Positions 10,208 to 12,991 of a stretch of DNA of 23,054 bases are shown here, piece by piece. How positions within the stretch are numbered: the stretch's first letter is position 1; every line of letters begins with the position of its first letter. The stretch lies in the UHGV virus genome UHGV-1326467. One strand, 5' to 3'. The position numbers and the translations under genes are program-made. Below the pieces are notes generated by a model. It was not told where the DNA came from. It did not search any database and worked only from the letters and a program-made list of their open reading frames with translations. The DNA comes from a virus.

Positions 10208-10579
10208 TCACTGAGCCGCTTTAAGCTTTCCGTCCACCGTGCCGGTGATACCGAAGAGTTGCCCTTGATCCTCCTGCAGGATGGTGAGCTTGCCGCCTTT
10301 ATTGACCCACATTGGTGTTTCGGTGGTGTCCTCTTCCGACGCTTTTCCGCGGGGAGTTGGGGTGCTGTAGTTCAGCTTGTGCTTAATCTTGACGCGCTTC
10401 TCTTCAACAGAGTTGCCCATACGCTCAAAATCAAAGGTCAGGACTACTTTGCCTTTGTTGCCGTTGTTCAGAACGCCGAGCGCGGTGGTATTCAGAGCCG
10501 CCGCAATCTTGTTCATGAATACGCCGGCGTCCAGTTCGCCCAGGAAATCGGGCACGACTGTCATGCGATCATTACTCAT
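10208..10579 (-). CDS. YfdP-like hypothetical protein
   Basis: 123 aa from the ATG at 10579 (GAGAGGG Shine-Dalgarno upstream); the track start at 10636 is a GTG without an SD. Confidence 0.5.
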   Translation of the reverse strand: MSNDRMTVVPDFLGELDAGVFMNKIAAALNTTALGVLNNGNKGKVVLTFDFERMGNSVEEKRVKIKHKLNYSTPTPRGKASEEDTTETPMWVNKGGKLTILQEDQGQLFGITGTVDGKLKAAQ

Positions 10580-10718
10580 GGTTTTACCCTCTCGAAAGGC
10601 GGCTGCCACCGCCGGGAATTTCTCCGTACACAACACAGAAGAGCACCTGCGGCTGCAAATCCGCCCGGGTGGATTGGGTAATGAGCCCGTCGCCCGGTGA
10701 TGCTCTTGTGTATTGTGT

Positions 10719-10788
10719 AAAAAGGGCGGTTATCCATCAGAACGTTATCCTCTTCCTCCTTTGGATAGTGGAAAACTGGATAACCGCC
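10719..10788 (-). terminator. candidate intrinsic terminator / attenuator in the pL transcript upstream of the early genes
   Basis: Perfect 11-bp inverted repeat ggcggttatcc / ggataaccgcc (10725-10735, 10778-10788) enclosing an inner 5-bp hairpin (tatcc / ggata) and an AGGAGG-rich loop, followed on the transcribed strand by CUUUUUA. Confidence 0.4.
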
Positions 10789-10789
10789 A

Positions 10790-11697
10790 AGACTACACAC
10801 AGCACAGTTAACTAGGTTGTGGCGGTGGTGCCTCCACCTGCCGGGTTAAGCCATAACCGGCGACGTACACTGCCCGGAAACGCATTCCATGAACGGGTTG
10901 GCTCGCCACGTGCGCATAGCCGCAATTACCACAACGAAGAGAGCACTGCCGGTGTCCGAATCGAACGGACCTTTTCCCTGCCCATCACCAGATATAGAAC
11001 TATCCTGGCGTCTGGAATCGAACCAGACTCTGTGCCTTGCTCGTCAATGCCCTCATCGTTGTGTCCCGGACTCTTCCCGGGCGTCACACCTTTTCGCCGC
11101 GCTGGTGGGGCGCACGTCGTGCCTGAAACACTTAGCTTGCACATTCCAGTTGTCCGGATAGCGCATGGAACTTCAAGGGAACCATCCGGGCTGCTAACGC
11201 TGCATGTGCCATACAACGGTCGTGAATATTGCCGTTCACAACTGGAAGCGCACTCCTTCAGTTACAAACCAGTCCCCACGACGTATGAAGATGGAATGCG
11301 CTTTCATGTTGTGTACGATTCATCTACCCCGGTCCGGCGGCGCCACCTCGCCGGGGCAGATGCAAAGGACCGTTACGCGATCATTCGGCTTGTTGGTCTG
11401 GCCGGAAGTATCAAGTCCCGACATCGCGGATTCTGCTTCTCCGCCCCGATTTCACCCCCGCTATTGTTTAGCGCGCAAACCGAGAAAACGCCTTCAACGC
11501 TGTCGGCTTTCGCCATGTTCGATCAGGTATCTTCGGGCGGGGCGCCGGCGACCAACCGGCACAACCCCTACAGTATTAATCCAGGTCTACTGGACCCCCG
11601 ACGCCGTGGGCTAAACGGCTGCTGTATGTCGGGTGAGTTTCTGTTGCTGGTGGTCAATCCAGCTCCGCAACCCCTCCCGAAGACACCTGTTTTTCAA
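10790..11697 (-). other. ORF-poor, strand-asymmetric leader segment; candidate structured noncoding RNA or decayed locus
   Basis: No minus-strand open frame longer than about 112 codons and none protein-like; plus strand is C-rich, giving spurious 90-305-codon opposite-strand ORFs with low-complexity translations. Two T-arm-like hairpins with UUCGAUU loops (plus 10954-10970, 11011-11027) and a long-range inverted repeat (10878-10890 vs 11291-11304). Confidence 0.3.
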
Positions 11698-11910
11698 TCA
11701 AAACTTCAAATTACGCACCAGAGGGGCAGCAGTTGAGCCGCCTGACATTTGTACCCTGATACGGTTTACTGATGGTTTGCTACGTTCTTCGCCCGTAAAG
11801 CTGTTGAATGTGCATAACCCTAGGACTAAACGAGGGACGCCGCGTAAAATTACAATTCCTCCAGCTTTTGGTAGCTTGCGGTACGCCTTGCGGCGTTGTG
11901 CTGAATTCAT
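11698..11910 (-). CDS. pL-proximal small basic protein, possible N-like antiterminator
   Basis: 70 aa; N-terminus MNSAQRRKAYRKLPK resembles an arginine-rich motif (lambda N begins MDAQTRRRERRAEK); GAGAGG Shine-Dalgarno 8 nt upstream; first ORF downstream of the predicted pL. Confidence 0.35.
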   Translation of the reverse strand: MNSAQRRKAYRKLPKAGGIVILRGVPRLVLGLCTFNSFTGEERSKPSVNRIRVQMSGGSTAAPLVRNLKF

Positions 11911-11945: not shown

Positions 11946-11996
11946 TGAATGTAATATTAGAAGTCTTACATTTTAAGTCAAGAGGAAAATGTAAGA
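11946..11996 (-). promoter_or_regulatory. pL promoter with overlapping operator palindrome (oL)
   Basis: Leftward -35 TTGACT (11981-11976), 17-nt spacer, -10 AATATT (11958-11953). Perfect inverted 10-mers CTTACATTTT (11965-11974) and AAAATGTAAG (11986-11995) straddle the -35; the same 10-mer recurs in oR. Confidence 0.55.
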
Positions 11997-12051: not shown

Positions 12052-12684
12052 TTAGAGATCGATGATTATTTGCTTAACTATACCGATCAGTTTTGTATCT
12101 TGGTTCACCTCTATAGGCTTAAACGACGGGTTTAGAGGTATGAGATAGGAAAATGGAGGGTCTATGGCGAGCTTTTTAATGGTCGCTTCACCACCAGTAA
12201 CGGTTTGGGCTATCACAATTTTGCCATTTGCCTCATCAACAAAACCGTATTCTGGCTCGACAATGACAACCGAACCATCAGGAATGCTAAGCTCTTGGCT
12301 CGAAGTCATCGAGTGACCTTTAACACGTAATGCAAAAGCTGATTCAGATAGCTTCTTTGTAGTTTTAACCAGTTCGTTAGCTGGATCGCCAATAACCTCG
12401 GTCCAGTTACCTGCCTGAACCCAAGATATAACAGGCACTTCTCTAACAGATATCAGGTTAATGTTGATACCGTTCTCGATATCGCCTGTACCGAAGATAA
12501 GCCATTCGGGAGAACATCTCAGGCACTGACATACCAATACAAGATTCTCGCCTGATAACTTTGTGGAATCATTTTCCCATTGTGTAACCGCAGACGCGCT
12601 GACGCCGGCCCACTCAGCAACATCACGTTGCGTAAGTTTTTTCTGCTTACGTCTAAATCTTAATCTGCTGCCAACGGTATCCAT
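12052..12684 (-). CDS. cI: CI-like repressor (HTH plus S24 LexA-like peptidase domain)
   Basis: N-terminal HTH (KLTQRDVAEWAGVSASAVTQWE) and C-terminal S24 domain with catalytic Ser (GHSM) and a downstream Lys; GGAGG Shine-Dalgarno; divergent from cro. Confidence 0.85.
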   Translation of the reverse strand: MDTVGSRLRFRRKQKKLTQRDVAEWAGVSASAVTQWENDSTKLSGENLVLVCQCLRCSPEWLIFGTGDIENGININLISVREVPVISWVQAGNWTEVIGDPANELVKTTKKLSESAFALRVKGHSMTSSQELSIPDGSVVIVEPEYGFVDEANGKIVIAQTVTGGEATIKKLAIDPPFSYLIPLNPSFKPIEVNQDTKLIGIVKQIIIDL

Positions 12685-12787: not shown

Positions 12788-12991
12788 ATGTTGAAAGCTA
12801 AAGTCGTCACGTTCTATGGCGGTATATCTAAAACCGCTACAGCTCTGGGAGTGACCCATAGTGCTGTATGCCAGTGGGGAGATGTTATCCCAGAAAAACA
12901 AGCGCTCTACATTGAGCGGCTCACAGATGGAAGGCTGAAGTACGACGCTTCCCTCTATCACAAGAATATCAATCCAACGACTCAGCAGTAA
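12788..12991 (+). CDS. cro: Cro-like repressor
   Basis: 67-aa HTH protein (ISKTATALGVTHSAVCQWG) transcribed divergently from cI; GGGGAGG Shine-Dalgarno. Confidence 0.7.
   Translation: MLKAKVVTFYGGISKTATALGVTHSAVCQWGDVIPEKQALYIERLTDGRLKYDASLYHKNINPTTQQ

Follow-up and report, generated by a model that had tools for sequence, protein, structure and literature searches.

Gene Content of the Locus

The window, that is, the whole 23,054-nucleotide stretch of viral DNA that was analysed, represents the immunity and early region of a lambdoid prophage. The features next to the segment under study (10790-11697) were the following, all positions being those of the window:

12788-12991, plus strand: cro, with a cII-like gene likewise directed rightward
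12052-12684, minus strand: LexA-family cI-like repressor gene
12045-12026: cI terminator, downstream of the cI-like repressor gene
11954-11981, minus strand: pL promoter of the sigma-70 type (TTGACT, 16-nt spacer, TAATAT) with operator-like palindromes, past the cI terminator
11698-11910, minus strand: 70-aa ORF with an Arg-rich N-terminus, the first leftward from pL

Leftward from pL, the 70-aa ORF is followed by the segment, a yfdP-family gene (ATG at 10579), yfdQ, a 5'-nucleotidase gene, ParB-like genes and methyltransferase genes. Within a lambdoid prophage of the CPS-53/mEp460/ST64B type, the segment forms the non-coding leader of the early-left (pL) operon, which is repressed by cI. The label "N-like", which a first-pass annotation had given to the 70-aa ORF, could not be supported, as searches of PHROG and Pfam with this ORF were empty and tblastn returned only weak similarity to hypothetical proteins of Pseudomonas phages.

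The same annotation had found no credible ORF on the transcribed (minus) strand of the segment and had dismissed the long plus-strand ORFs as artefacts of a C-rich composition, and both statements held. The longest minus-strand ORFs within 10790-11697 encode 96, 47, 37 and 35 aa, and no Pfam or PHROG match was obtained for any segment ORF tested, whether on the minus strand or the 305-aa ORF on the plus strand. The latter (10819-11736) is split into pieces of no more than 124 aa in relatives of 93% identity (L052 and L075). The GC skew of the plus strand was −0.03 to −0.14 over 10800-11700, so that the RNA made from the minus strand is G-rich. Given the lack of family matches and of conservation of the 305-aa ORF, coding on either strand was rejected; PGAP annotation likewise placed no pseudogene at the segment in hundreds of genomes. 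In cultured phages, spurious antisense ORFs have been annotated over the region.

Searches for Rfam families and tRNA genes, in line with the checks proposed at the first pass, gave no accepted match in the segment. ARAGORN found no tRNA gene there at default settings and, when relaxed, made only low-scoring, odd calls (a 4-base anticodon; an "intron" of 589 nt), on which grounds a tRNA or tmRNA gene was rejected. A search of the whole window against Rfam 15 gave no match at the gathering threshold; the best sub-threshold match had an E value above 1, and the sole match at E ≤10 was a weak, DicF-like one on the terminator hairpin described below.

A Mosaic of Exchangeable RNA Modules

When the segment was compared by BLAST with the loci fetched for this analysis, sharp breakpoints in similarity were seen at about 10730, 10790, 10930-10950, 11042-11063, 11314, 11520, 11545 and 11688. 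On the minus strand it consists of folded RNA modules that can be exchanged and together make up a mosaic. Tandem or direct repetition of a single unit was rejected, since self-BLAST yielded inverted repeats only. The earlier comparison of this position with the rexAB moron hotspot is loosely apt, the leader being a hotspot for the swapping of RNA modules. Two modules lie nearest the 70-aa ORF:

11523-11697, minus strand: module M1, strongly folded (z = −5.06), with a closing helix 11689-11671 / 11542-11524; a separate mosaic block
11315-11522, minus strand: module M2, an insert in only some relatives, with no significant fold (z = −0.79)

In 107 phage records, unannotated DNA matched pieces of the segment at 70-99% identity, and 1129 of the 5426 complete E. 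coli genomes contained parts of the region. At least 120 loci were recovered from IMG/VR in each of two pattern scans, and a scan of one genome per species was positive in Citrobacter, Klebsiella, Kosakonia, Phytobacter, Buttiauxella, Pseudocitrobacter, Superficieibacter, Pseudescherichia and Erwinia dacicola. As a rule, a prophage carries a single copy. Where the prophage is lambdoid, the match without exception occupies the space separating the cI-like repressor gene from genes of the yfdP type; in the Salmonella Uetakeviruses SPN1S and SPN9TCW its neighbours are the terminase gene and the portal gene, and it lies on the opposite strand, abutting tRNA-Arg.

A Conserved Core with Candidate Pseudoknots

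A conserved core among the modules was resolved into the following elements:

11063-11224, minus strand: conserved core of about 160 nt, supported by covariation and a covariance model match of 131.8 bits
11218-11198, minus strand: helix P1, loop GCACAU
11144-11139, minus strand: AUGUGC, candidate partner of the P1 loop (PK1)
within the core, minus strand: variable hairpins P2 and P3
11113-11099, minus strand: helix P4, loop CACC
11090-11087, minus strand: GGUG, candidate partner of the P4 loop (PK2)
11081-11065, minus strand: hairpin P5

An alignment of 37 diverse homologues (pairwise identity below 94%) contained helices P1, P2, P4 and P5 together with a three-pair helix that closes the variable hairpin P3. 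Over these helices 97.2% of the cells can pair, compared with 30-45% in slid controls; compensatory changes were seen at 16 pairs, and none of 500 shuffles reached the observed values. The many G-U pairs are compatible with the minus strand only. The joining nucleotides are invariant, the whole forming a compact multi-helix junction with two candidate pseudoknots. PK1 (GCACAU/AUGUGC) is invariant in the alignment and stands as a candidate pairing, with which rare variants of the P1 loop agree better than with an extended hairpin. In PK2, CACC/GGUG is replaced by AACC/GGUU in 11 of 69 cores, a change from C-G to A-U that also occurs in two divergent versions.

The covariance model built from this alignment found one full-length copy per locus, with the window scoring 131.8 bits over the full model, and also matched Stx2a phages, mEp460 and the Salmonella Uetakeviruses. 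It gave nothing in HK022, HK639, LLS or L003, and no second copy in the pR operon within the fetched flanks. As helices P1, P2, P4 and P5 and the adjoining stem H2 (see below) are kept by compensatory substitutions, it is proposed that the core together with P5-H2 constitutes a new RNA family. Rfam 15 has no entry for this RNA and, within the literature that could be searched, it is undescribed, only its downstream neighbour having been reported. An apparently uncatalogued structured RNA is thus added, from a region of which roughly one in five complete E. coli genomes carries parts. Also considered, and rejected, was an ops/RfaH-like element in GGGUAGCC, as the motif varies and the window carries GGACAACU at that place.

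H Stems and a tRNA-Like Insert

The modules are separated by homologous stems of about 22 bp (CACAAC...GUUGUG), here termed H stems. Those of the leader and the insert carried by H2 are listed below:

11237-11313, minus strand: H1, a hairpin of the H type (CACAAC...GUUGUG), 5' arm 11313-11293, 3' arm 11256-11237
10930-11063, minus strand: H2, an imperfect 22-bp stem around a variable insert, 5' arm 11063-11042, 3' arm 10951-10930
10952-11041, minus strand: insert B, a tRNA-like four-way junction with H2
11028-11010, minus strand: T-loop hairpin T1, 6-bp stem
11008-10988, minus strand: middle hairpin of insert B
10970-10954, minus strand: T-loop hairpin T2, 5-bp stem
10628-10718, minus strand: H4, an H-type stem between the terminator and the yfdP-like ribosome-binding site, arms 10718-10699 / 10647-10628

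Hairpin P5, with a loop of the GAAGAG type, is directly followed by H2, which has a fixed pattern of mismatches and is maintained by compensatory change over about 60 variants. Its tip carries at least 20 unrelated inserts of roughly 25-120 nt, which differ between phages. In the window this tip is insert B. The 23-kb window has exactly two occurrences of GTTCGATTC (0.19 expected), at 11023-11015 and 10966-10958, each on the minus strand. The two T-loop hairpins reported at the first pass are present, with stems of 6 and 5 bp; the spacing of 68 nt given for them was not confirmed, the distance being 57 nt from loop start to loop start and 39 nt between the hairpins.

In an alignment of H2 with insert B (39 variants), 94.1% of cells pair, compared with 37-53% when slid, and 16 pairs show compensatory change, of which H2 accounts for 7, the middle hairpin for 5 and T1 for 4. 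None lies in T2, its 3' arm having been fixed by the search pattern used. Both 7-nt T loops retain the UUCRANY consensus in the 39 aligned variants. In about 20 of the loci tested, insert B with P5-H2 follows other upstream modules and the standard core is missing. The suggestion that the transcribed strand forms a folded RNA is thus supported by covariation in the core, in H2, in the first T-loop hairpin and in the middle hairpin. Insert B is under selection and is not a relic. As it is one of many interchangeable tips of H2, it is unlikely to be essential to the function of the core; its conservation and tRNA-like geometry suggest that it either stands alone as a tertiary module or mimics tRNA towards elbow-binding proteins. 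It might also act as a tRNA-like decoy, a role named at the first pass.

These data also bear on whether the segment is decaying sequence made up of relic tRNA genes, att fragments or a frameshifted protein gene, as had been offered among the first-pass readings. The T-arm-like hairpins, the low-scoring pseudo-tRNAs obtained with relaxed ARAGORN and the resemblance of T1 to the T-arm of the phage tRNA-Arg found in related loci would all fit such an origin. It is, however, largely refuted and has only a minute chance of being correct: identity of 70-97% is kept across genera with compensatory base changes, the T-loop module persists with such changes in at least 55 sequence variants, and the protein family, pseudogene and default ARAGORN searches described above were empty, the plus-strand ORF being unconserved.

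Nearly as improbable is the reading that the hairpins act as DNA, for example in the manner of integron attC, as recombination sites folded from a single strand, or as inverted repeats of the MITE type, which would account for the cassette-like mosaicism. Mosaic breakpoints do coincide with H-stem arms, and each H stem is an inverted repeat, imperfect and with conserved mismatches, around a hypervariable centre. Ordinary homologous recombination, however, also predicts breakpoints at conserved sequence, no recombinase is associated with the element, and there is usually a single copy per prophage. Moreover, the numerous compensatory G-U pairs suit the transcribed strand only, and the element has a promoter upstream, a terminator downstream and, at a homologous locus, an RNA that was detected experimentally.

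The H stems also probably explain a long-range inverted repeat that had been taken at the first pass to suggest a folded domain. The repeat itself is present in the window, its arms (10864-10890 and 11291-11317; 27 nt, 78% complementary) lying 400 nt apart:

10864-10890, minus strand: distal arm of the long-range repeat, an orphan H-type 3' arm, unsupported by covariation

A conserved domain-closing helix was not upheld. The 5' arm of the repeat also serves as the 5' arm of the local hairpin H1, which recurs in many loci and provides it with a conserved local partner. The sequence of the distal arm differs between loci (AUGGAAUGCG, AAUGAAUGCG, UUUGAGUACG), the 5' arm showing no substitution that would compensate, and the distal arm is also found in loci from which that 5' arm is missing. 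To judge from these sequences, the long-range complementarity most likely reflects shared ancestry of H-type arms rather than conserved closure of a domain.

The Terminator-Proximal RNA and sRNA-17

Downstream of H2, the leader ends in a module with the following features:

10716-10936, minus strand: terminator-proximal RNA, positional counterpart of sRNA-17, with a terminator at its end
10936-10928 and 10823-10815, minus strand: "alt-H", in which 5' CGUUGUGGU can pair with GCCACAACC
10716-10803, minus strand: DicF-like intrinsic terminator module, with flank GCUGUGUGUAGUCUU, stem 10788-10777 / 10736-10725 and then CUUUUUACA

A motif search placed the terminator design, consisting of the flank GCUGUGUGUAGUCUU, a covarying GGCGG...CCGCC stem and a U-tract, after the RNA and ahead of the first gene in at least 72 of 139 distinct loci. 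The base of H2, GUUGUGG(N), has an alternative potential partner, a downstream (N)CCACAAC, in about half of the loci, and the bases flanking this alternative match better than in shuffles, of which 12 in 2000 were as good. The two pairings of the H2 base, within H2 or with the downstream CCACAAC, are mutually exclusive.

That a leader of this kind gives rise to a stable RNA, as the first-pass proposal of a structured RNA implies, is supported by Northern blot and RACE in a homologous leader, that of the mEp460-like prophage of E. coli K1 RS218, from which the 193-nt sRNA-17 was described as having "no homolog in Rfam" (Front Microbiol 2020, PMC7719688). sRNA-17 and the terminator-proximal module of the window belong to the same type of locus, namely the leader between a cI-like repressor and yfdP in an mEp460-like prophage, and 10936-10716 of the window has the same 5' GUUGUGG, internal CCACAAC and terminator design. 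They differ in that the body of the window module is homologous to that of LLS and L003 and only loosely alignable with sRNA-17, and in that RS218 and mEp460 have another H2 insert in place of the T-loop insert.

In the published work the 250 bp upstream of sRNA-17 were treated as a promoter with an ArcA site, the conserved structure going unrecognised (PMC7719688). When the published primers were placed on mEp460, the "full length" pair was found to run from CGTTGTGGTGAATGCG, which is the last 8 nt of the 3' arm of H2, to the leader terminator. The primers for the "promoter" fragment lie just upstream of P1 and inside the 3' arm of H2, so that this fragment comprises the core and H2, and the qRT-PCR amplicon runs from the core to near the terminator, which places the start of the transcript upstream of the core. 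The mapped 5' end of sRNA-17 falls inside the 3' arm of H2, coincident with the conserved alternative pairing; the RACE used did not tell primary and processed ends apart (PMC7719688). A virulence-associated sRNA can thus be reread as the terminated or processed tail of a phage leader, and its supposed promoter as folded RNA.

In RS218, yfdP is silent while the stable 193-nt RNA is made, and deletion of sequence between H2 and the terminator was accompanied by an increase in yfdP from 0.49 to 47 reads (about 96-fold) and in yfdR from 0 to 8.5 (PMC7719688). As yfdP and yfdR lie immediately downstream of the deletion, this suggests an effect in cis on read-through; the derepression could also be an artefact of the cassette or scar.

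Arrangement of the Leader in Other Phages

The distance from a promoter with operators to the start of the core is about 30-60 nt in mEp460, the Stx2a_1447 phage and many IMG/VR contigs; in the window, the core lies about 720 nt from the pL start, with other modules between. Locus L031 has an HK022-like OL/PL, and there the core takes the position that putL has in HK022. In SPN9TCW the order is a presumed promoter (not detected by a consensus scan), core, H2 with insert B, tRNA-Arg and two terminators, the second of which ends 15 nt before the next start codon, leaving no room for a promoter after it. In both SPN9TCW and L036, the 3' arm of an H stem runs right up to the 5' end of tRNA-Arg(UCU). 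Phage LLS lacks the core and has H1, a downstream module of the window type, two terminators and H4; locus L003 has the same leader design and terminators, again without a core. A requirement for the core in every leader of this design was rejected on the basis of these two, which share the design and show that the core is not universally required.

Possible Control of Read-Through and Fate of the Leader RNA

The data show a conserved multi-domain RNA on the strand transcribed from pL, a terminator before the first gene and, at a homologous locus, a stable RNA ending there. The best explanation, put forward tentatively and at a little less than an even chance, is a pL leader of modular RNA in which core/P5-H2 decides read-through of the leader terminator and an sRNA-17-like RNA arises on stopping. 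RNA polymerase starting from pL would make the core/P5-H2 structure, which would then influence, in cis, either the elongating complex or the way in which the downstream leader folds, such that transcription either stops at the leader terminator, releasing an sRNA-17-like RNA, or continues into yfdP/yfdQ/yfdR and beyond. Core/P5-H2 would in this manner do the job of N/nut or put in other lambdoid phages, with the H stems as putative processing sites and the T-loop insert as a structural or tRNA-mimicking accessory rather than the catalytic heart.

The strongest argument for such control in cis is the order of promoter, RNA, one or two terminators and genes, found in several independent contexts with no N-type gene between; among the ORFs tested, none had an N-like match in PHROG or Pfam. 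Also in its favour are the rise of yfdP in the RS218 deletion strain, with the reservation about a cassette or scar made above, and the alternative pairing of the H2 base. For phage LLS, specialists have likewise noted the absence of N, suggesting an RNA mechanism and guessing at a put-like RNA (PMC12315714). Against control in cis stand the lack of homology between the core and put, the core-less leaders of LLS and L003, the occurrence of insert B with P5-H2 in the absence of the standard core and, in the window, the distance of the core from the pL start. The accumulation of sRNA-17 in lysogens that carry the core indicates that read-through is not constitutive, and termination is evidently efficient in RS218 lysogens.

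A second reading, less likely but with a substantial minority chance, is that the leader serves mainly as a polycistronic precursor of stable RNAs that act in trans. Its H stems would be cleaved, for example by RNase III, with RNase P acting where a tRNA follows, to yield a core RNA of about 160-250 nt, the tRNA-like insert, an sRNA of the sRNA-17/DicF type and, in leaders that have it, tRNA-Arg. The products might act on host proteins or mRNAs, for instance as decoys for factors that bind or cleave tRNA, or as Hfq-dependent regulators. The independent recombination of the modules, also in unrelated phage contexts, would suit such a precursor, as would the H-stem 3' arms abutting tRNA-Arg(UCU) in SPN9TCW and L036, the DicF-like terminator module, the UUCRANY consensus kept over T-loop variants, and conserved loops and pseudoknots resembling those of RNAs that bind proteins or ligands. 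The 5' end of sRNA-17 within the H2 3' arm, which can re-pair with the downstream CCACAAC, points the same way, with the reservation that the RACE does not separate primary from processed ends. Both the processing enzyme and the trans target are hypothetical, however, and a precursor leaves unexplained why terminators stand directly before protein genes with no space for a promoter. Control of read-through in cis and production of trans-acting RNAs are mutually compatible.

More speculative, and unlikely as it stands, is a reading in which the scaffold of core, P5 and 22-bp H2 is an RNA-display platform of the phage for hypervariable, horizontally exchanged inserts (at least 20 types, including the double-T-loop tRNA mimic). 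Released by H-stem cleavage early in infection, the inserts would serve as decoys or regulators against host factors such as tRNA-targeting defences, and the leader would amount to an array of "RNA moron" cassettes with processing stems between them.

It is improbable, finally, that the core is a riboswitch-like aptamer that senses a ligand or factor and so tunes early-left expression to host physiology. The compact multi-helix junction with its invariant joining nucleotides and two candidate pseudoknots, its position in a 5' leader upstream of a terminator and the mutually exclusive pairings of the H2 base are features that a riboswitch might have. Core and terminator, however, are non-overlapping and 150-500 nt apart, the genes that follow are not always the same, nothing hints at a ligand, and the core is optional in otherwise identical leaders.

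Relationship to Known RNA Elements

Core/P5-H2 is of a known kind, a structured phage leader RNA and possible antiterminator, and lies outside any known family. A parallel to its proposed function would be put, which brings about read-through by binding the zinc-binding domain of the RNA polymerase beta' subunit. The put RNAs of HK022 and HK639 are likewise structured and encoded in cis just downstream of pL in N-less lambdoid phages, with terminators after them, and in L031, with its HK022-type operators, the core stands at the putL position. The core also shares the promoter-proximal place in the pL operon of a phage that has no N, with terminators further on; in the window, extra modules separate it from pL. 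In contrast to put, of about 70 nt and two stems, the core has about 160 nt, five helices and candidate pseudoknots, shows no sequence or covariance-model similarity, and occurs as a single copy with none at pR within the flanks; an antitermination role is inferred for it. Membership of the put family was rejected, since the core model was empty in HK022 and around the annotated putL of HK639 even with filters off, and BLAST gave similarity in the operators only. For the many N-less lambdoid prophages of E. coli, Klebsiella, Citrobacter and Salmonella, Stx2a-converting phages included, the segment provides a covariation-supported candidate for the means of passing early-left terminators.

DicF of the Qin prophage (RF00039) is comparable to the terminator module as an sRNA-like 3' module in an operon of the early-left type, with a Rho-independent terminator that downstream genes must read through, and the two have UUGGCGGU...CAGUUU...CCGCCCUUUUU in common. 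The window scored 16.5 bits, compared with a gathering score of 48 (E = 1.8; 10724-10801, minus strand), and differs in its 5' "seed" sequence and in a 28-nt insertion in the hairpin; the common motif and the position suggest distant relatedness only.

P4 CI RNA and the c4 RNAs of P1/P7 are cut from the leader of an early operon, have tRNA-like processing features and control premature termination. The present element differs from these in giving no match to the Rfam C4 family at E ≤10, in that this analysis found no complementary target sites, and in that the prophages carrying it also have a cI/Cro switch. The AgvB/AsxR anti-sRNAs and the Pas sRNAs were rejected as counterparts because they are encoded elsewhere in prophages, at the PR' moron site or in the structural operon. 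ROOL and GOLLD are large, ornate, prophage-borne RNAs that often adjoin tRNA genes, and in some phages tRNA-Arg abuts the element described here; it differs from them in having no Rfam match, in its occurrence in Enterobacteriaceae, in its location in a regulated operon leader and in being modular with exchangeable inserts.

Insert B, for its part, resembles tRNAs and tRNA-like RNAs (the tRNA-like domain of tmRNA and the bacterial Y RNA YrlA) in its two hairpins with 5-6-bp stems and 7-nt UUCRANY loops, in a four-way junction closed by a long stem and in conserved GG-containing linkers that could mimic D-loop contacts. It differs from them in having two T-arms in one junction and no anticodon arm, acceptor end or CCA, and in being negative in ARAGORN and Rfam. 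If the inserts are functional, the tRNA-like module would represent a new kind of phage tRNA mimic.

Exchange of leader modules

The leaders of phage LLS (L265 3478-3870, minus strand) and L003 were found to share the design of the window, with the H-type stem H1 (CACAAC...GUUGUG), a downstream module of the window type and the post-terminator stem H4, and to lack the conserved pseudoknotted core, which shows that the modules can be exchanged independently of one another. The LLS leader contains two terminators. Divergent or minimal cores were seen at L155 and L192, and these retain only the P4 hairpin with its candidate pseudoknot PK2 (AACC...GGUU), the UGAC motif, the P5 hairpin and the stem H2 that follows the core, which suggests that the most widely conserved unit is the core's 3' half. 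The further features considered are as follows.

Features flanking the core
Window 11698-11910, minus: 70-aa ORF next to pL
Window 11523-11697, minus: separate mosaic block
Window 11222-11239, minus: GUGAACGGCAAUAUUCAC, a small hairpin in the H1-core interval
Window 10716-10803, minus: terminator, a conserved module made up of GCUGUGUGUAGUCUU, a GGCGG...CCGCC stem and a U-tract
Window 10628-10718, minus: H4, a further H-type stem of 20 bp
L129, L135, L144, L220, L225 and others: conserved 5' hairpin, CCACCGAGCCUGAUGUGG then UGAAAAGACAGG
L001 2822-2900, minus; L036 8520-8670, plus: tRNA-Arg(UCU) adjoining an H-type stem

Among 139 related loci, at least 72 show a covarying terminator stem, and a module of this type is also carried by the Uetakevirus SPN9TCW. 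It resembles the 3' half of DicF, the Qin prophage sRNA, although the Rfam match was weak (E = 1.8). H4 begins two bases past the U-tract, ends about 35 nt ahead of the yfdP-like RBS and shows covariation between the window and the mEp460/Stx2a version.

Upstream elements

The mosaic block is predicted to fold far more strongly than shuffled sequence (z = -5.06) and to be closed by a 19-bp helix (11689-11671/11542-11524). The conserved 5' hairpin lies 5' of the core in some loci and directly 5' of H2(B), the version of H2 with T-loop insert B, in others; a relative of it opens the LLS leader, and it may constitute an extra functional module close to the transcript start. The 70-aa ORF had been labelled N-like in the first-pass annotation; PHROG and Pfam searches with it returned no match. 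Given its 37-41% identity to hypothetical proteins from two Pseudomonas phages, the ORF probably represents a genuine small gene. No boxB-like hairpin was present between pL and this ORF.

Neighbouring and overlapping features

In some phages, the first base of tRNA-Arg(UCU), present in 8 of 124 loci, directly follows an H-type stem at its GUUGUG end, so that the 3' side of this stem would be set by RNase P cleavage. One tRNA-Asp was also called, on the opposite strand.

Stem II of putL, the HK022 antiterminator RNA, has the 10-mer GAACGGCAAU in common with the small hairpin GUGAACGGCAAUAUUCAC, and putL also contains AGCGCGGCG of the core. The two are ordered differently in putL and the window, and these matches may be due to chance.

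Two GenBank 'hypothetical proteins' of mEp460, mEp460_036 and mEp460_037 (L262 2823-3376), run antisense over the core, H2 and the region of sRNA-17, a published E. coli K1 RNA, and are most likely spurious ORFs.
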